A stretch of DNA of 21,140 nucleotides, from assembly GCA_050015075.1 (NCBI GenBank), contig JBEKCB010000049.1:1-21140 (forward strand). The letters run 5' to 3'. This DNA is from Candidatus Brocadiia bacterium. Its GTDB lineage: Bacteria; Planctomycetota; Brocadiia; CAIUPP01. Both the position numbers and the translations under genes were made by a program. The notes under the pieces are model-generated. The model was not told where the DNA came from, made no database searches, and saw only the letters and a program-made list of their open reading frames with translations. Below, piece by piece: positions 12,046 through 19,548 of the stretch; position 1 is the stretch's first letter, and every line of letters starts with the position of its first letter.

Positions 12046-13964
12046 TTCGACCGCCTTGTGGCCCGCAGCAGGGCCTCGACGAACATGGGCGGCGGCTGGC
12101 CGCCCTTCGCCTGGAACGTCTGCACGTCAGCCAGCGCCTGCTCGTACTGCCCGTTCTGCGAATAGGCGCTCGCGCGGTTGATGTAAGCCTGGCGAAGGTC
12201 CGGCCTCAGCTCGATGGCCTTGTCGCAGTCGGCGATGGCGAGCGCGGTACGCTCGGACTGCAAGTAGGCGCTCGCGCGGTTCTCGAAAGCTTCGGCGTAG
12301 CCGGGCTGGAGTTCAATGGCCCGGCTGTAGTCCCGGATCGCCTCGGCGAGCCGGCCGGCCTTCATATAAGCGATGCCGCGGTTATTGTACGCCGCGGCGA
12401 AACCCGGCTTCAAGGCGATGGCCTTGTCGAAGTCGCCGACGGCCTCGGCGGTCTGACCCGCCGCGGTATGCGCGATGCCGCGGTTGTTCCATGCGTCGAA
12501 ATAGTCCTCCTTCAATTCGATGGCCTTGCTGAAGCATCGGATGGCGTCGTCGGTGCGCCCCGCTTCAAAGTAAGCCGCGCCGAGATAGTTCTGCGCGCGT
12601 GGTTCCCAAGGGCGTTTCGCGGCCGTATCCTGCCAGATGGAGATCGCGTCGCGGTAATCCGCGTTCCGCTCGAATGTCCCATAACCCAATGCCGCCGCGG
12701 CCGACAGGAGCGCCACAGCCGCCAGGGCGCCGCCGAGGTGTTTCCGTGTCCCAGCGGATTCGGCCGCGCCGCGGAGCAATTTGCCGCCGAGCCAATAAGC
12801 CGCAACGACGCAGCCCGTCACGATGGCCGCCAGAGGCAGGTACATCCGGCGCTCAGCGGCGACCTCCGTGACGATCGGCACGAAGCTCGAGGTCGGCGCA
12901 AGGATGAAAAAGAACCACGCGCCGAGAAACCCGAGCGCCGGCGCGCGGCGCAGCGCCCAGAGAGTCGCGGCCAGCAACGCCGCAATGACGGCCGCCGCCG
13001 GGATGATCTGCCCGGCACTCGTCGCGATCGGCCAGAAGTAGACCAGGCACAGCGAACTCGGCCAGAAGCTTAGCCGCAAGTAATTCAGTATGACGCCCGG
13101 CTGCGTGCGCGCATATTCCCACGGGCCGGCCTCCGGCAGGCCGAACCCCGCGCCGGTCGCCGCGCCCCAGGGATACGCGATCACCAGCGCGCCGAGGATC
13201 GCCCACGTCGCGGCCAGGCCCAGATACAATGGCCACCGGCGGCGGAGCGCTTCGCGGAACGATCCGGAAAGGAAGCATCGGTCGTACAGGAGGACAACGA
13301 TCGGAGCGGTCGCCATGACCTCCTTGGCGCCCATGCCCAGGGCGCAGGCGGCGACGGCTGCCGCGTACCATCGCCCGGGATGCCCGCTGGATGCGCCGCG
13401 GATCGTACCGTAGAGGGTGAGCAGGAAAAAGAGCCCCATGAGACACTCCGTGCGCTGAGTCAGGTAGGTCACCGATTCGGTCAGCAGAGGATGGACCGCC
13501 CAGATCAGCGCCGCGGCGAACGAAACGGCGACGCGTGCGCCATCGTCCATCGTCCATCGTCCCGATGACAGCGTGCGGCGAACGATGCCGAAGAGCACCA
13601 GCGCGGCCAGCAGATGGATGAGCAGGTTCCCGGCGTGAAAGCCGCCCACGTCTAGCCCGCCAATGGCGTAGTTGATTGCGAGCGTGAGGTTTACGACCGG
13701 CCTGCGGGACACTGCGGTCGCCTGGGGCGGAACGAAATTCTCCCAGGCTGGGAAATGGCGGAGGGTCGGATTGTCCTGGATCGCGGAGAAATCATCGAAA
13801 ATGAAGGGGCCGCTGAAGCTGTTCGACCAGGCCGCGATCCCGGCGGCCAGAATCGCTGCGCAGGCCAGTACCGTCCAGCCGGCCTGTCGCGGAGATGCGA
13901 GACGGTCGGAATCCGCGATCGGTCGCTGGCTCATGTTGGGCGCGTGGTCAGCCTGTCGAGGCAT
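12042..13964 (-). CDS. TMTC-like membrane glycosyltransferase (GT-C) with C-terminal TPR repeats
   Basis: 'FIFDD', 'NLLIH', 'WAVHPLLTESVTYLTQR', 'AKE', 'AERRMYLP', TPR 'AYNNRG' units. ATGA overlap with the paralog; the start may be ATG 13934. Confidence 0.85.
   Translation of the reverse strand: MPRQADHAPNMSQRPIADSDRLASPRQAGWTVLACAAILAAGIAAWSNSFSGPFIFDDFSAIQDNPTLRHFPAWENFVPPQATAVSRRPVVNLTLAINYAIGGLDVGGFHAGNLLIHLLAALVLFGIVRRTLSSGRWTMDDGARVAVSFAAALIWAVHPLLTESVTYLTQRTECLMGLFFLLTLYGTIRGASSGHPGRWYAAAVAACALGMGAKEVMATAPIVVLLYDRCFLSGSFREALRRRWPLYLGLAATWAILGALVIAYPWGAATGAGFGLPEAGPWEYARTQPGVILNYLRLSFWPSSLCLVYFWPIATSAGQIIPAAAVIAALLAATLWALRRAPALGFLGAWFFFILAPTSSFVPIVTEVAAERRMYLPLAAIVTGCVVAAYWLGGKLLRGAAESAGTRKHLGGALAAVALLSAAAALGYGTFERNADYRDAISIWQDTAAKRPWEPRAQNYLGAAYFEAGRTDDAIRCFSKAIELKEDYFDAWNNRGIAHTAAGQTAEAVGDFDKAIALKPGFAAAYNNRGIAYMKAGRLAEAIRDYSRAIELQPGYAEAFENRASAYLQSERTALAIADCDKAIELRPDLRQAYINRASAYSQNGQYEQALADVQTFQAKGGQPPPMFVEALLRATRRSK
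13540..13562. repeat. 7-bp tandem repeat (CCATCGT)x3 inside the TMTC-like CDS
   Basis: ccatcgt ccatcgt ccatcgt cc; encodes GRWTMDDG. Confidence 0.8.
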
Positions 13965-14029
13965 GGCCGGAGGACACGTTCCGCATGCCCCGGTTGGAAA
14001 ACTGGGATTCGACGAGACGACAGGAAGGT

Positions 14030-14058
14030 ATTATACGCCCTCGCCCGAGCGGCATCAA
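14030..14058 (-). promoter_or_regulatory. Putative sigma70 promoter for the TMTC-like pair
   Basis: TTGATG (14058-14053), 17 bp, TATAAT (14035-14030). Confidence 0.7.
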
Positions 14059-14075
14059 GACTCGGCGTCGCCGCT

Positions 14076-14444
14076 TTACTTCCGGATGAGGAAGCGGCGG
14101 CGATTGCCCTTGGCCTTGAAGAACTTCCGGCAAAACGCGGCAGCATCAGCCGGGTCGAACTCCTTGCAGGAGAAGACGTTCAGGTAGACCTTGTTCGTCC
14201 CCTCGCTGAAATGCGCAACGATCGAGCTTGTCTCGATGAGCTGCACCAGGCTGTAACCGGACGTCATCGGATCCTTGTGCCCGAAGTGCGCCAGGATCGG
14301 CTTGCCGTATCGCTTCATCTTGATGCGGCGGCAGAGCTGGCGTGCGAAGAGCGCCAGCTTGGCTTTGCTGCGGATCACCTTGGGATCGCAGCCGCGGAGA
14401 TCCAGAATAAGTTCCGCCCCGAACGTTCTGTGCGCTGCGCTCAT
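14076..14444 (-). CDS. speD: Pyruvoyl-dependent decarboxylase proenzyme, S-adenosylmethionine decarboxylase (SpeD) family, 122 aa
   Basis: 'GAELILDLRGCD', 'GYSLVQLIETSSIVAHF', 'VFSCKEFD'. Strong SD GAGGAGGT before ATG 14444. Substrate uncertain. Confidence 0.8.
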   Translation of the reverse strand: MSAAHRTFGAELILDLRGCDPKVIRSKAKLALFARQLCRRIKMKRYGKPILAHFGHKDPMTSGYSLVQLIETSSIVAHFSEGTNKVYLNVFSCKEFDPADAAAFCRKFFKAKGNRRRFLIRK

Positions 14445-14905
14445 TTCACCACCTCCTCTGCAAAGTTCCGGAGAGCGAAACAAGCACGGTAGAGCTCCGC
14501 GTTGTAGTCTTTCGCCGCGAGACGCCGCTGGCCGACGCGCCGTTCGAGGCGATTCCCCGAGACCCGGAGAACCCCGGCTGAACTGTACCCGTGAACGACC
14601 TGAAAACAAATCCTGCTCGCGCAGGCACAACAGTCTGGTCCATGCAGGCTCTGGGAACGTCTGAGGCAGGACGCGGATCAGCAAGTCTCTTCAACGCCAG
14701 CGCCTTTCAGTTCAGAAAGCCGCACATCCCGGTGCGCGATGACCGGCATTCCCATTCCAACAAGAACCCAACCACCACACAGGGTGACCCAGGAAGAGCA
14801 CACGCAAAACTTTCAGGTGCTCTCGCCCAAAGTCCGTCGGCTGTCCAAACCCACCGACGAGAAAGAGCCGCCCCTTTCAATATAGCCCTAATAGTCAGCG
14901 TCAGC
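14445..14905 (-). other. Long, likely structured 5' leader of the speD-like gene (candidate cis-regulatory RNA)
   Basis: Lies between a strong promoter and the speD SD; several stems visible; I recognise no Rfam family. Confidence 0.45.
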
Positions 14906-14910
14906 AGCGT

Positions 14911-14980
14911 TTTATACCACTAATGGTTGTTTCATGTAAAGTGCAAAAGGCCCTTTTTTTCGATTTTTCCAGAAAATTTT
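14911..14980 (-). promoter_or_regulatory. Putative sigma70 promoter with extended -10 and A-tract UP-like element
   Basis: TTTACA (14940-14935), 18 bp, TG-G-TATAAA (14916-14911); A/T tracts at ~14953-14981 in otherwise GC-rich DNA. Confidence 0.65.
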
Positions 14981-15101
14981 TCCGCGCCCCGCAAGACGTC
15001 CAAGGAGGCTGAAGGGTTTCCTCCCTGCGGAATCGAATCTCCGTGCGACCCTGGCGCGCTAAGCCGATCGGTCGTTCGTAAAATGAACGCTGGGAACAAC
15101 A

Positions 15102-15143
15102 AACGGCATCTCTCGCCAAGACGCCAAGAGCGCCAAGAACGGC
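15102..15143 (+). repeat. Left arm of the inverted repeat flanking the GxxExxY gene
   Basis: aacggcatctctcgccaagacgccaagagcgccaagaacggc matches the reverse complement of 15563-15604 at 38/42 positions. Confidence 0.9.
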
Positions 15144-15149
15144 AGAAAA

Positions 15150-15539
15150 CTATTCGGGTTCTTCAAGGCCGTTCACGATGCGGGTGATTCCGTCCTTCAT
15201 CACGGCCTCGCCGAAGTTCAGTAGAAAACCGAGTTTCATGCCGGTCAGCTTCAGGTATGTCAGCAACTGCTTTCTGTGCGCATTATTCAAGGACGCGACG
15301 GACTTGATTTCCAGGATCACCTTTTTCTCGATGATGATATCCGCGCGGAAACCTTCCTCGAAGCGAACTCCCTGGTATTCGATGGGAACTGCCACCTGCC
15401 GTTCCACGGCCAGACCACGCTCAGAAAGCTTGCGCGCCAGGAGAACCTCGTAAACCGTCTCCAGAAGACCCGCACCGAGGTCGCGATGAAGTGCGACAGC
15501 CGCATCCACCACGATTTTGCCGATCTCGTTCTCCGTCAT
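15150..15539 (-). CDS. GxxExxY protein (PD-(D/E)XK nuclease superfamily), 129 aa
   Basis: 'LGAGLLETVYE' (GxxExxY), 'FRADIII', 'ILEIKSV', 'QLLTYLK', 'LLNF'. ATG 15539 follows AGGA; the ORF-track extension to 15617 is translated repeat. Confidence 0.93.
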   Translation of the reverse strand: MTENEIGKIVVDAAVALHRDLGAGLLETVYEVLLARKLSERGLAVERQVAVPIEYQGVRFEEGFRADIIIEKKVILEIKSVASLNNAHRKQLLTYLKLTGMKLGFLLNFGEAVMKDGITRIVNGLEEPE

Positions 15540-15613: not shown

Positions 15614-16987
15614 TCAATTCTGGCGCCCCTTGCGCCTTGGCGCCGGGCGCGTGCGCCGCGGGTTGATCGCGATCATCGGGTCGGCCGCGGAGATCGTGAC
15701 CGTGGCCGTCGCGCTGGCGATTTCCTTCTTGATGTCCTTCACGGTGCCGTCGAACGACAGGCGGCTGCCGGGCTTGATCTCCAGGATCTCCGTCGGCAGA
15801 CCGATGTGATCAAGGAGGGCGATGAACGGTTCGGGGTCCAGCTCCTCGACGTTGACCATCGTTCTCGGGTCCCAGATGCCCTGGGCGATGAGCATGGCCG
15901 CGGCGACGGGCGGGACGCCGGCGGTGTAGCTGATCGCCTGCGCCTCGACTTCGTCATAGCACCGCTTGTGGTCCGACACCTGGTAGATGAAGATCTCCCG
16001 CTTCTTGCCGTCCTTCCACCCCTTGATGAAATTGCCGATGCAGGTCTTGCCGGTGTAGGCCGGCGCCAGCGTCTTCGGGTCCGGCAGGAGCGCTTTGACG
16101 AGTTTGAGTGGGACGACTTCCTGCCCGGTCACCAGGCGGACCGGCAGGTGAGAGAGCAAGCCCAGGGTGCGGAGCGTGGTGAAGACGTTGATGTAATGAT
16201 CGCCGAATCCCATCCAGAAGCGGATGCTGTTCGCATCAATGTTCTGGGAAAGCGAGTGCAGCTCGTCGTGGCCGTTCAGGTAGATCGGCCGCTCGCCGAC
16301 GACGGGGAAATCGTAAATGCGCTTGACCGCGTGCGTGGGATATTCCTTCCACTGGCGGTCAATCCACGTCCAGACCTTGATGAACTCTCGGAAGTTGATC
16401 TCGGGATCGAAGTTCGTGGCGAAATACTTGCCGTGGCTTCCGGCGTTCACGTCCATGATGTCAATCGTGTCAATCTTGTCGAAGTAGCGCTTGACGGCCA
16501 GCGCGCAGTAGGCGTTCACGACGCCCGGATCGAACCCGGCGCCGAGAATGGCGCACAGGCCCGCTTTCCGGCAACGGTCCTTGCGCTTCCATTCGTAATT
16601 CGCGTACCACGGCGGGTCCTCGCAGACCTTTTCCGGCTCTTCATGGATGGCCGTGTCCACATAGGCCGCGCCGGTCGCCAGGCATGCGTCGAGAACGGAC
16701 ATGTTGACGAACGCGCTGCCGAGGTTCAGGACGATGCCGGAGTGCGTCTCCTCGATGAGCCTGGACGTGGCGGGAATATCCAGCGCGTTGATCTGGCGGG
16801 TATAGACTCTGCGGCTTTCATCCTTGATGTTCTTTTTGCGCTTGATACTCGCGACGACCTCGTCGCACTTGGAGAGCGTACGCGCCGCGATGCAGATGTC
16901 GCCCAGCACGTCGTTGTTCATCGCCGCCTTGTGCGCCGCGACGTGGGCAACCCCGCCGGCGCCAATGATCAGAACATTCTTCTTCAT
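15614..16987 (-). CDS. Carboxy(nor)spermidine dehydrogenase/synthase (saccharopine dehydrogenase family)
   Basis: 'VLIIGAGGV', 'YVDTA', 'GAGFDPGVVN', 'HGKYFATNFDPEIN', 'YTGKTCIG', 'QAISYTAGVP'; adjacent to nspC. Confidence 0.92.
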   Translation of the reverse strand: MKKNVLIIGAGGVAHVAAHKAAMNNDVLGDICIAARTLSKCDEVVASIKRKKNIKDESRRVYTRQINALDIPATSRLIEETHSGIVLNLGSAFVNMSVLDACLATGAAYVDTAIHEEPEKVCEDPPWYANYEWKRKDRCRKAGLCAILGAGFDPGVVNAYCALAVKRYFDKIDTIDIMDVNAGSHGKYFATNFDPEINFREFIKVWTWIDRQWKEYPTHAVKRIYDFPVVGERPIYLNGHDELHSLSQNIDANSIRFWMGFGDHYINVFTTLRTLGLLSHLPVRLVTGQEVVPLKLVKALLPDPKTLAPAYTGKTCIGNFIKGWKDGKKREIFIYQVSDHKRCYDEVEAQAISYTAGVPPVAAAMLIAQGIWDPRTMVNVEELDPEPFIALLDHIGLPTEILEIKPGSRLSFDGTVKDIKKEIASATATVTISAADPMIAINPRRTRPAPRRKGRQN

Positions 16988-17003: not shown

Positions 17004-18107
17004 TCATGACAGGCTCGAGAGATAATCCTGGTAATCGAATCTGCGGACGACCTGGACCGATCCGTTCAACCGCCGGACCGCGATCGCCGGCATCGGCAGG
17101 CCGTTGAACCAGTTCTTCTTCACCATGGTGTAGCCGGCCGCATCAGCGATTCGCACGATGCTGCCGATTCGGAGTTTTCGATTGAACCGATAGGTGCCGA
17201 AGACGTCGCCGGCCAGGCACGATCGGCCCGCGATCATGTAGCGATGCCGTCCACGTCCGGTCCCTTCCATCTTCGCGCTCTGGCGGTAGAGGAGCAGGTC
17301 GAGCATGTGCGCCTCGGCCGAGGCGTCCACTACGGCGATGGAGATCTCGTTGTGCACGATGTCCAGCACCGTGGTCACCAGCGCCGCGGAACGCGTGACG
17401 GCCGCTTCGCCCGGCTCAAGGTAAAGCTGGACACGGAATCGCTCGGCGAATTCCCGCAGCTTCCGGCAGAACGCGTCGAGCGGGTAGCCCTCCATGGTGA
17501 AATACAGGCCGCCGCCGAGGCTGACCCATTCGAGCGTCCGGAGCAGCGGCCCATAGTCGCGGGCGATCCGGTCGAGCGCCCGGGAAAAATGCCCGAAATC
17601 GCCGTTCTCGCAGTTGTAATGGAACATGACTCCGTCGAGCCGCGGCGCGATCTTCAGCAGGGCGCGGCGGTCCCTTACGCCGAGGCGCGAGTATTTCCGC
17701 GCCGGGTCGGCAAGGTCGAAGTGGGAATAGCTGATTCCCGGATTCACGCGCAGGCCGACATTCAGCCCGCGGACCTCTTTCTCGAACCGCGCGAACTGCG
17801 AGATCGAATTGAAAATGACCTTGTCGGCGAACTTCCGCACTTGCCGAATCTCGGCTCGGTTCCAGCCGACGCTGTAGGCATGGACTTCCTTGCCGAACTT
17901 TTCGCGTCCCAGCCGCGCCTCGAGCAGCGAGCTGCTCGTGGTTCCGTCCATGTATTTCCGCATCAGGCCGAAGACGCTCCAGGTCGAGAAGCATTTCAGC
18001 GCGAGCACGGACTTCGCGCCGGAATGCCGGCGGACATACTCGATGGTCTTCAGGTTCCTGAGGAGCTTCCGCTCGTCAATCAGGTAATAAGGTGTCGTGA
18101 GGCGCAT
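17004..18107 (-). CDS. nspC: Carboxy(nor)spermidine decarboxylase
   Basis: 'TPYYLIDE', PLP lysine 'LALKCFS', 'GLRVNP', 'SRLG', 'SLGGG', 'LEPGEA', 'CLAGD', 'YTMVKKNWFNG'. ATG 18107; the longer ORF-track start overlaps gcvH. Confidence 0.93.
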   Translation of the reverse strand: MRLTTPYYLIDERKLLRNLKTIEYVRRHSGAKSVLALKCFSTWSVFGLMRKYMDGTTSSSLLEARLGREKFGKEVHAYSVGWNRAEIRQVRKFADKVIFNSISQFARFEKEVRGLNVGLRVNPGISYSHFDLADPARKYSRLGVRDRRALLKIAPRLDGVMFHYNCENGDFGHFSRALDRIARDYGPLLRTLEWVSLGGGLYFTMEGYPLDAFCRKLREFAERFRVQLYLEPGEAAVTRSAALVTTVLDIVHNEISIAVVDASAEAHMLDLLLYRQSAKMEGTGRGRHRYMIAGRSCLAGDVFGTYRFNRKLRIGSIVRIADAAGYTMVKKNWFNGLPMPAIAVRRLNGSVQVVRRFDYQDYLSSLS

Positions 18108-18153
18108 GGCCGATCCGAACTTCTCCGGGGATGAAAATGTCCGACAGCCTGTG

Positions 18154-18182
18154 AGTATACGGGCTTGCGGACGACCCGTCAA
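18154..18182 (-). promoter_or_regulatory. Putative sigma70 promoter of the nspC operon
   Basis: TTGACG (18182-18177), 17 bp, TATACT (18159-18154). Confidence 0.72.
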
Positions 18183-18193
18183 CGCCCATGACC

Positions 18194-18223
18194 TTGACTT
18201 GGCGCGCCGGACGCTGATAGGAT
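18194..18223 (+). promoter_or_regulatory. Putative sigma70 promoter of the gcvH-like operon
   Basis: TTGACT (18194-18199), 18 bp, TG-A-TAGGAT (18218-18223). Confidence 0.6.
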
Positions 18224-18269
18224 GCCCAATCGCCTCCGATTGGCCTCGAAGAACAGGGAGAGGAGCCAC

Positions 18270-18656
18270 ATGGTCCCAGAGCAGTTGCGCTATACACCGA
18301 CACACGAGTGGTGCCGCATGGACGGCCAGACCGTCGTCATCGGCGTGACCGATCACGGCGTGGCGCCGGTCGGGAACGTCATTTACGTCGAACTCCCCGA
18401 AGCGGGCGACGACGTGCTGCACGAGGTGCCGTTCGGCGAGATTGAAGGCACGCGCAACGTGAAGGACCTGGTCTCGCCGTTCGACGGCGTGGTCGAAGCC
18501 GTCAACAGCGCCGTAGTGCTGAAGCCCGAGGTGCTGATGAAAGAGCCTTACGAAAGCTGGCTGATCCGGCTCAAGCCGGATTCGCCCGCTTCGTTCGAGA
18601 ACCTGCTCTCCGCAGCCGACTACGAGGACCACCTGCGCAAGAGAAGGAGCAAGTGA
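18270..18656 (+). CDS. gcvH: Glycine cleavage system H protein-like, lacking the canonical lipoyl lysine
   Basis: 'LRYTPTHEW', 'IGVTD', 'YVELP', 'SPFDGVVEAVN', 'PYESWLIRL'. SD GGAGAGGAG before ATG 18270. Confidence 0.85.
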   Translation: MVPEQLRYTPTHEWCRMDGQTVVIGVTDHGVAPVGNVIYVELPEAGDDVLHEVPFGEIEGTRNVKDLVSPFDGVVEAVNSAVVLKPEVLMKEPYESWLIRLKPDSPASFENLLSAADYEDHLRKRRSK

Positions 18657-18666
18657 GCGCCGGAAT

Positions 18667-19548
18667 ATGGCCAAGCCGAAAATCGCGATCATCGGTCCCG
18701 GCGTCGTCGGCCGGTCCATCGGGCGCTTGCTGCGCGAGCGGCGGTTCCCAATCGCGGCGGTCGCGGGACCGTCGCCGAACCACGTGCGCGCCGCGCTGGA
18801 CTTTATCGGAGCGGGTCATGCGGCGCGTTCGCCGGCGGTCGCGGCGCGTTCGGGCGACGTGGTCTTTCTCACCGTGCCCGACCGGATGATCCGGCCGGTC
18901 TGCGAGGAGATTGCCGCGGCGAAAGGATTCAAGCGCGGCGCGGTGGTCATTCACTGCGCCGGCGTACACGACGCGTCGGTCCTCGCGGCGGCGCGCGAGC
19001 GGAAGGCCCTGGTCGCCGCGCTTCATCCGCTGCAGAGCTTTGCCACGCCCGAGGGCGCGGTGAAGGCGATGAAGGGGACCTGCTTCACGTTCGACGGCGA
19101 TGAGGCGGCCGCGCCGGTCGCGGAGAAAATCGTCGAGGCGCTCGGCGGCCGAATGGTCCGCGTCCGCCCCGAAGGCCGCGCGCTTTACCATGCCGCCTCG
19201 TGCGTGCTCTCGAATTACCTCGTCGCGGTCGCGGACCTGGGAACTATCATGCTGGTCCTGTCGGGCATGGACAAGGCCGAGGCCGCGCGTGCGGCTCAGC
19301 CGCTGCTGGCCGGCACGGTCGGGAATATCGGAAGAGTCGGCGTGCCGGCCGCGCTGACCGGGCCGATCTCGCGCGGCGACGTGGAGACGGTCACGCGGCA
19401 CCTCGTTGCGCTGAGCCGGTTGCCGCGGGAAATCCGGCGGCTTTACTGCTCGCTCGGACTGTATACCGTCCGCGTCGCGCAGCGAAAGGGCACGCTCAAC
19501 CAGGGCGACGCTCGGAGCCTCGTACGGCTGTTGATGGAAGCCAATTAA
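18667..19548 (+). CDS. Rossmann-like + DUF2520 domain oxidoreductase (PanG-like)
   Basis: 'IIGPGVVG', 'LTVPD', 'HCAG', 'LHPLQSF', 'LYHAA', 'ALTGPISRGD'. Confidence 0.85.
   Translation: MAKPKIAIIGPGVVGRSIGRLLRERRFPIAAVAGPSPNHVRAALDFIGAGHAARSPAVAARSGDVVFLTVPDRMIRPVCEEIAAAKGFKRGAVVIHCAGVHDASVLAAARERKALVAALHPLQSFATPEGAVKAMKGTCFTFDGDEAAAPVAEKIVEALGGRMVRVRPEGRALYHAASCVLSNYLVAVADLGTIMLVLSGMDKAEAARAAQPLLAGTVGNIGRVGVPAALTGPISRGDVETVTRHLVALSRLPREIRRLYCSLGLYTVRVAQRKGTLNQGDARSLVRLLMEAN

Follow-up and report, generated by a model that had tools for sequence, protein, structure and literature searches.

The window analysed here is a 21,140-nucleotide (nt) stretch of DNA from a Candidatus Brocadiia bacterium of the Planctomycetota (contig JBEKCB010000049.1), and our subject is the gap of about 460 nt that separates a promoter from a speD-like gene, speD2; coordinates are those of the window, and the locus is read on the minus strand. 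In the initial annotation, this gap was taken for a single structured leader of the speD-like gene, either a riboswitch or an independent non-coding RNA. The observation is real but over-read. On comparison with related loci, the gap is, with high confidence, the remnant of an ancestral operon, consisting of three parts: a probable new, lineage-specific cis-regulatory leader, a neutral scar left by a deletion, and a conserved relic of the 3' end of speE. This composite of a leader and gene relics is the explanation that we favour overall, with moderate confidence.

Remnants of a speD-speE operon

Taken as a whole, the stretch 14910-14440 (471 nt) has no more structure than expected by chance and is not one RNA element. 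Its minimum free energy (MFE) of -188.3 kcal/mol compares with -189.1 +/- 6.2 kcal/mol in dinucleotide shuffles (z = +0.12), and 58 of 100 shuffles fold as well or better. Folding relative to such shuffled controls had been set in advance as a check on the annotation, and for the whole region the outcome goes against it: the structured part is limited to the 5' ~175 nt.

A DNA search of 41 related genomes produced matches in four. A genus-mate (G001) is 90% identical throughout the region; the match with G002 and G003, which represent two further genera of the family, is confined to two blocks, block A at about 14866-14692 and block B at about 14579-14440. Between these blocks, the alignment places a complete canonical speD in both G002 and G003 (127.4 bits with TIGR03330 for the latter; cutoff, 75.65), whereas the window and G001 lack it. 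The canonical gene starts at a TTG codon on the 3' edge of block A, 8 nt past a GAAAGG Shine-Dalgarno (SD) sequence.

At least 17 loci were found by scanning metagenomes with an alignment of the speD-like protein. An intact speE lies between speD and the speD-like gene in L030 and L029 (328 bits with NF002010 for L030), its stop codon overlapping the speD-like ATG as ATGA; the same 3' end of speE is present in L028 and L033, the contigs of which are cut upstream. Five sequences (G002, G003, L025, L026 and L032) keep speD along with only the tail of speE. The deletion of the window type, in which speD is lost as well, occurs with the same junction in seven (the window, G001, L018 and L020-L023). 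A different deletion is seen in L034 (2076-2504, plus strand), where an in-frame fusion joins about 65 N-terminal codons of speD with about 60 C-terminal ones of speE; the fused frame lacks the ES processing motif, keeps both the leader start codon (here GTG) and the ATGA overlap, and matches NF002010 and TIGR00417 in its C-terminal part. L031 and L027 represent further states of decay. The ancestral layout, as reconstructed from these alignments, is promoter, leader, speD (AdoMetDC), speE (spermidine synthase) and the speD-like decarboxylase; the family of the window has lost most of speE, and its genus speD in addition.

The end of the lost speE is still legible in the window. In a tblastn search, residues 260-313 of the SpeE protein of L029 match 14605-14444 with 54% identity (E = 2e-16, for a small target). 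The match has the expected place and orientation, and 14605-14441 is the tail of the deleted gene. The frame, which reads ..YNAELYRACFALRNFAEEVVK* up to its TGA stop, is not an intact gene: only the last 54 codons are present, without the catalytic domain and without a start codon upstream of 14452 (the first in this frame are the GTG codons at 14452/14449, and a stop lies upstream at 14680). The description of this interval as a gap without a recognisable gene thus no longer holds.

Within the genus, where constraint was measured on five distinct sequences, variable columns make up 11.9% of the leader core and 36.6% of the scar (over 14691-14580), the latter value resembling that of third codon positions in the speD-like gene (30.9%). 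The last ~135 nt of the relic, with 14.1% of columns variable, are conserved like coding sequence. Reading the relic as coding in the speE frame found no support in the genus, the variable sites being distributed 9/5/5 by codon position. Among L029, L033 and L034, third positions vary in 5 of the last 22 speE codons, compared with 18 of 33 further upstream, and the paucity of third-position changes in these last codons suggests constraint at the RNA level at the gene junction.

The locus represents a natural series of operon decay, from the intact operon through the loss of speE and the loss of both speD and speE to an in-frame fusion. Every state keeps the putative regulatory leader and the gene junction while the intervening enzymes go, and the series thereby reveals the non-coding parts of an operon that are under selective protection. 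It also carries a warning for annotation: in GC-rich genomes, what looks like a long 'structured leader' may turn out to be the remains of a gene, and hairpins and U-runs picked by eye can be fossil codons, as exemplified by the TTTGTTTTC run following the GNRA hairpin, which aligns to Phe-Phe codons of SpeE.

The conserved leader

The expectation of a structured RNA leader downstream of a promoter is borne out for the 5' part of the gap, which is conserved and absent from Rfam. In the consensus fold, a long clamp helix with interruptions closes a three-way junction (Table 1). This RNA evolved, however, ahead of the true speD, now deleted, and not, as originally assumed, for the speD-like gene. 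A covariance model of the leader (R1), built from 12 sequences, matches 4 of 132 genomes of the class, all four belonging to the family of the window and each matched once, as well as 12 of the 17 metagenome loci listed, the other five contigs ending before the leader position. R1 matched none of the loci taken from 400 sampled genomes of the phylum; the speD-like genes there are only 39-47% identical and stand in other contexts. A pattern scan for the 5' strand of the clamp yielded at least 120 matches, of which only two among those listed were real by nhmmer, neither contributing any new sequence (G002 was not among the matches listed).

In contrast to the whole region, the leader part proper (14866-14685, 182 nt) folds better than its shuffled controls, with an MFE of -74.2 kcal/mol versus -62.7 +/- 4.0 (z = -2.85), a value matched by one of 200 shuffles. 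Across 13 distinct sequences, 94.8% of the cells of the 52 consensus pairs are paired; sliding the partners lowers this to 38-48%. Changes on both sides occur in 8 of the 52 pairs in the model-fitted alignment, and the covariation score of 0.177, compared with 0.124 in shuffles, was reached by none of the 500. For the clamp alone, 4 of 21 pairs change on both sides, and the score is 0.214 versus 0.148 (0 of 500 shuffles). Because the structure comes from the same alignment and the scoring alignment is model-fitted, these covariation figures lean towards structure.

Two of the stems first read from the sequence lie within the leader. AGAGCAC/GTGCTCT forms the top of hairpin P2 and is kept with compensatory changes; CGTCGG/CCGACG is conserved without covariation and shares the 5' strand of the clamp, an arrangement that is compatible with two alternative folds of the leader. 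At the place of P0, the alignment shows a hairpin of different sequence in the relatives, and the segment from the expected transcription start site (TSS) through P0 (14904-14860) evolves fast in the genus, with 37.8% of its columns variable. The unpaired stretches GGGAAUGCCGG, CGCGCA and GGGA are invariant, and the start codon position is aligned as TTG or GTG in 15 of 16 sequences, the exception being CTG in L027. A separate candidate, that the leader is a coding upstream open reading frame (ORF), was rejected: the variable columns show no 3-periodicity, and the lengths of 161-185 nt differ by non-multiples of three. In G003 (L004:560-790), about 100 extra nt lie between the -35/-10 elements and the start of the leader core, and the P2 hairpin is much shorter and of different sequence.

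The search of Rfam that had been proposed came back empty: with Rfam 15 at gathering thresholds, cmscan gave no match in the entire window. At E <= 10, the interval 14300-15150 contained no S-adenosylmethionine (SAM)-family match and nothing sensible; at E <= 1, the loci of six relatives gave neither a SAM-family match nor any other sensible one. The best matches in these permissive searches were to a CRISPR repeat model and 'M23', each scoring far short of its threshold. The remark that no SAM-I consensus is recognisable here is thereby confirmed, and the polyamine gene context of the leader stands as well.

The promoter upstream was also correctly perceived. Its CTTTACA and TATA(A/T)N motifs are aligned in 13 of 14 relatives, the contig of the fourteenth starting downstream of the promoter position, and an A-rich tract precedes it at about 14990-14951; a strict scan, which demands a spacing of 16-18 nt and a -10 hexamer ending in T, does not list it. 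The TSS is expected near 14904. Contigs from RNA libraries of three metatranscriptome studies cover 14083-14804 in pieces; one of them, 14575-14731, is identical to the window, and another, 14372-14499, joins the relic to the speD-like gene. None lies on 14805-15095 or 13908-14069, and the contigs are uninformative on transcript ends.

Taken together, these results lend modest support to the view that strong purifying selection acts, on RNA or on DNA, to maintain the leader, a non-coding element with a better-than-chance fold, and it seems rather more probable than otherwise that it functions as a cis-regulatory RNA. Under the model that we propose, the leader would gate translation initiation at the TTG codon by alternating between two folds, the clamp and the local CGUCGG/CCGACG hairpin that competes for its 5' strand, in response to a ligand or protein tied to polyamine status. 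A polyamine or amino-acid signal would be likelier than SAM or decarboxylated SAM (dcSAM) because the leader outlived both SAM-dependent genes, and putrescine/spermidine or ornithine/arginine are the likelier candidate effectors. Several features of the data count against this proposal. The number of further pair types in the leader is not above that of shuffles (179 of 500); the 13 distinct sequences come from about seven lineages, the structure was scored on its source alignment, and the scoring alignment (A5) was itself fitted to R1, which makes the leader figures suggestive; L027 has lost both the SD and the start codon of the leader; and the RNA-library contigs, which may include DNA, show no ends, strand or level.

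Even a functional leader may not sense a metabolite. It is quite conceivable, although not the reading we prefer, that the leader is folded and conserved as a protein or small RNA (sRNA) site, as a structure of the polyamine modulon type, or as a constitutive stability or translation element. The same conservation and structure data apply in this case. In Escherichia coli, a bulged SD and a UUG start codon are linked to polyamine-stimulated translation (the 'polyamine modulon'), and the window shares both features, with its SD bulged from a long helix and UUG as the start codon; furthermore, the narrow distribution, one family and a few contigs, would sooner be expected of lineage-specific protein-binding leaders than of widespread riboswitch classes. 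However, the locus has no linked gene for a candidate regulator, and the 175 nt, the three-way junction and the invariant unpaired stretches exceed what a simple operator would need. That the leader is a metabolite-binding riboswitch strikes us as rather unlikely, and slightly more doubtful still is the full combination of a new riboswitch class for a polyamine-pathway metabolite, which would open or close the clamp over the ribosome-binding site, with a relay over 250 nt of debris by an obligatory, sequence-free bridging ORF. If this combination were true, a regulatory RNA would have been re-targeted to a new gene by deletion.

Table 1. Features of the speD2 locus in window coordinates
Feature	Position	Strand	Remarks
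Conserved structured leader (block A)	14689-14863	-	~175 nt; covariance model R1, 183 bits
Clamp helix	14859-14838 with 14722-14695	-	consensus fold
Hairpin P2	about 14831-14779	-	includes AGAGCAC/GTGCTCT
Hairpin P3	about 14777-14726	-	long, imperfect, G-U rich
SD of the old speD, GAAAGG	14708-14703	-	in 6-nt bulge of the clamp
Start codon of the old speD, TTG	14694-14692	-	1 nt past the clamp end
Deletion scar	14691-14606	-	place of true speD and about five-sixths of speE
speE relic	14605-14441	-	last 54 codons and stop TGA (14443-14441), which overlaps the speD-like ATG (ATGA)
SD/AUG hairpin	14487-14437	-	14487-14470 (GUGCUUGUUUCGCUCUCC) pairs with 14456-14453 and 14450-14437
Bridging ORF, 82 codons	14694-14446	-	TTG, scar, relic in non-speE frame, TGA at 14448-14446
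speD-like gene (speD2), 122 aa	14444-14076	-	Pfam AdoMet_dc, E = 4e-17
Sigma-70-type promoter	14940-14911	-	-35 TTTACA (14940-14935), 18-nt spacer, extended -10 TGGTATAAA (14919-14911)
Hairpin P0, GAAAGGG-GCGG-CTCTTTC	14878-14861	-	read from sequence
Stem CGTCGG/CCGACG	14859-14854 with 14840-14835	-	read from sequence
Stem AGAGCAC/GTGCTCT	14823-14817 with 14801-14795	-	read from sequence
8-bp long-range helix CTGAACTG/CAGTTCAG	14715-14708 with 14585-14578	-	read from sequence
GNRA hairpin CCTGC-GCGA-GCAGG	14625-14612	-	inside the scar
CTCTCC	14475-14470	-	upstream of GAGGAGG (14458-14452)

The gene junction and the bridging reading frame

The last part of the relic can fold over the initiation region of the speD-like gene, covering part of the GAGGAGG SD and the ATG codon (14444-14442). 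This hairpin is present in both the MFE and the centroid structures (-25.3 kcal/mol), and the RNAalifold consensus of 13 sequences contains a 17-pair hairpin over the SD and AUG with one compensatory change. The suggestion that CTCTCC could mask the SD therefore survives in part: the motif, contained in GUGCUUGUUUCGCUCUCC, lies within a conserved hairpin over both signals, but the stability of that hairpin is not above that of shuffles (z = -0.77).

The TTG codon of the lost speD now opens an ORF that crosses the scar, traverses the relic out of the speE frame and stops 1 nt before the speD-like ATG. In all seven sequences of the genus (five distinct), it is exactly 82 codons long and ends at the same stop; the genus alignment contains no indels in 247 columns, although about 37% of the scar columns vary. 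Its peptide is not conserved, with variable sites at 18/20/22 by codon position, and has no Pfam or NCBIfam match. An ORF likewise spans the relic in L034, G003 and G002 (with L032 and L026 left out of this comparison). The stronger candidate rule, that the relic is always spanned by a translated ORF, is ruled out by L025. Between 14449 and 14680 on the minus strand, TAA, TAG and TGA are missing from all three frames over 232 nt; a stop-free run of this length was reached by 22 of 5000 dinucleotide shuffles in a post-hoc test.

More speculatively, the signal perceived by the leader would still reach the surviving speD-like gene in this genus. Ribosomes initiating at the TTG codon might read the 82-codon ORF and terminate within the masking hairpin, and termination there could open the hairpin, in an instance of translational coupling. 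The independent deletion in L034, which is in frame up to the ATGA overlap, fits such coupling. We regard a relay of control through the bridging ORF as a somewhat doubtful proposition, and the case for it is weak. The speD-like gene has a strong SD of its own; the SD/AUG hairpin is no more stable than shuffles and does not appear in the MFE structure of L030; in L025, where speD is intact and speE is a relic, no ORF spans the 259-nt relic, so that continuous translation is not universal; and the retention of the ORF is only weakly significant, none of the three frames being closed over scar and relic and an 82-codon open frame being expected by chance in about 7% of cases in GC-rich DNA (an estimate from base composition).

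With comparable plausibility, also short of an even chance, everything downstream of the leader could be inert. The speD-like gene would then be translated from GAGGAGG independently of the TTG codon, the ORF would be a by-product of a GC-rich relic, and the leader would act at the level of transcription or mRNA stability only, or not at all in this genus. The position of the SD, 7 nt before the ATG, the unremarkable stability of the hairpin, the lack of a codon-position signal in the ORF, the missing spanning ORF in L025 and the openness of three frames over 232 nt, which is not frame-specific, are all as expected in that case. Inertness does not readily account, however, for the constraint on the leader, including its SD and TTG codon (11.9% variable), although its own gene is gone, or for the coding-like conservation of the last ~135 nt of a relic (14.1%) that is unreadable as speE. 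The indel-free alignment of the genus, the in-frame deletion of L034 and, in the post-hoc comparison, the rarity of a comparable stop-free run in shuffles also argue against it.

The remaining alternatives fare far worse. A functional small protein encoded by the bridging ORF is highly improbable: the frame is open and of constant length throughout the genus and has an SD and a TTG start, but its variable sites favour no codon position, genus members diverge widely in the N-terminal half of the peptide, no family matches it, and it was born where the deletion joined its flanks and runs through the speE relic in a different frame. Least probable, to the point of being nearly untenable, is the original reading of the whole ~460 nt as one structured leader, riboswitch or independent RNA, of the speD-like gene organised by the 8-bp helix: all six pairings listed for it are indeed found on the minus strand where they were placed, the promoter upstream is conserved and the polyamine gene context holds, but the region as a whole folds no better than chance, its halves are 0.4-1.3 kb of coding sequence apart in relatives, with one or two entire genes between the arms of the helix, the middle 86-112 nt evolve like synonymous sites, and the 3' part is recognisable as speE coding sequence. 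The helix itself, CTGAACTG/CAGTTCAG, links the 3' strand of the clamp to the first bases of the relic and is not conserved outside the genus; G002 and G003 have not kept its second arm (14585-14578), and the first arm is paired within the covariation-supported clamp. The GNRA hairpin is not conserved outside the genus either.

Genomic setting and known systems

The speD-like protein reaches 62.9 bits with Pfam AdoMet_dc (cutoff 25), which places it at the superfamily level, and 23.6 bits with TIGR03330, below the equivalog cutoff of 75.65. When aligned to true speD with hhalign (probability 79%), its S73 falls on the pyruvoyl serine and T72 on the place of Glu; a search of the PDB with a sequence profile of the protein gave no match. 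The speD2 product is probably a divergent, pyruvoyl-dependent decarboxylase of the AdoMetDC fold, to judge from these alignments. Within E71-T72-S73 (14226-14234), the Thr that replaces the Glu preceding the self-cleaving serine is invariant in four sequences of the family. More distant speD-like genes, 45-49% identical, occur in L014 (G004) and L013 (G119) in a different conserved cluster, which by eye comprises a TetR-like regulator, the speD-like gene, a 322-aa ORF and an ATP-grasp-like ORF; in an nhmmer search using an early profile, whose block A part also took in speD columns, neither genome showed a leader or relic.

Directly upstream of the leader promoter lies a GxxExxY/PDDEXK_3 gene (15617-15150, minus strand), situated between it and a CASDH-like gene (15614-16987, minus strand; NF043000, 462 bits, below the cutoff of 800). 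This gene is followed further upstream by an nspC-like gene for carboxy(nor)spermidine decarboxylase (17004-18719, minus strand; 407 bits against a cutoff of 409), the match of which covers residues 207-567 only, so that its 571-aa ORF is probably over-extended at the 5' end. Together, the nspC-like and CASDH-like genes make up a different route to spermidine, encoded immediately upstream of the leader. The CASDH gene of G002 and G003 is convergent with the speD-like gene and downstream of it, and in both genomes the leader is preceded by a divergent ORF that by eye resembles glycine-cleavage protein H. Elsewhere in the genome of the window (G000), contig C9 carries a second pair, a true speD followed by a polyamine aminopropyltransferase gene (L007:1288-3139, plus strand), with scores of 86 bits with TIGR03330 and 230 bits with NF002010, the latter below the cutoff of 260; the R1 search found no copy of the leader at this pair. 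Given the C9 pair and the nspC-like and CASDH-like genes, the lost speD and speE were plausibly redundant. A second consensus-like promoter, TTGATG-17-TATAAT (10/12 matches), lies at 14030-14058 (minus strand), directly after the speD-like gene and before a 640-aa TPR gene (13964-12042).

In translational riboswitches and leaders, such as SAM-II, 'off' switches of the preQ1 type and ribosomal protein leaders, a closing helix sequesters the SD or the start codon. The leader described here resembles them in that its closing helix spans the initiation region and a competing local hairpin uses the same 5' strand; unlike them, it has the SD bulged out rather than paired, and it is limited to one family of Planctomycetota and a few metagenome contigs. 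Translational coupling through an ATGA stop/start overlap combined with a hairpin that masks the ribosome-binding site (RBS) is a textbook feature of operons. The intact relatives conform to it, with a speE stop codon overlapping the speD-like ATG and last speE codons that can pair with the SD and AUG, whereas in the window the upstream gene is gone, and a junk ORF made by the deletion would have to do the unmasking.

Clusters of the speD-speE-speD2 type with neofunctionalised SpeD homologues, namely the ornithine decarboxylase SpeDC and the arginine decarboxylase SpeDA, appear in passages of Li et al. 2023 (PMC10407285). The locus matches the cluster types in these passages in its ancestral speD-speE-speD2 order, in the linkage of the speD-like gene to casdh/casdc-like genes and in the retained pyruvoyl serine, so that S73, the ancestral cluster and the CASDH-like and nspC-like neighbours all agree with the context of such homologues; the protein of the window differs in having Thr where Glu usually precedes the serine. 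Neither a leader RNA nor the decay of such clusters is described in those passages, and our literature search found no paper combining speD, riboswitch and Planctomycetes.

The closest functional parallel is the spermidine riboswitch, which passages of Salvail et al. 2023 (PMC10853860) present as a set of rare variants of the SAM-I aptamer in the leaders of speD, speE and other polyamine genes, propose to serve feedback control and treat as the only established class of polyamine-sensing riboswitches. As far as those passages go, the two are alike in being 5' leader RNAs on polyamine biosynthetic genes and differ in architecture: a SAM-I four-stem junction with a transcription terminator in the former, and in the latter a three-way junction with an RBS clamp and no terminator following. 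In the relatives, the leader runs directly into the SD and start of speD with no terminator between, and the terminator-like sites in the window are weak (four found versus 1.8 expected, two of them within the relic or scar). The leader of the window is thus outside the SAM-I-variant spermidine class, and a leader of a second, unrelated kind on the polyamine genes of Planctomycetota would merit a screen for ligands.

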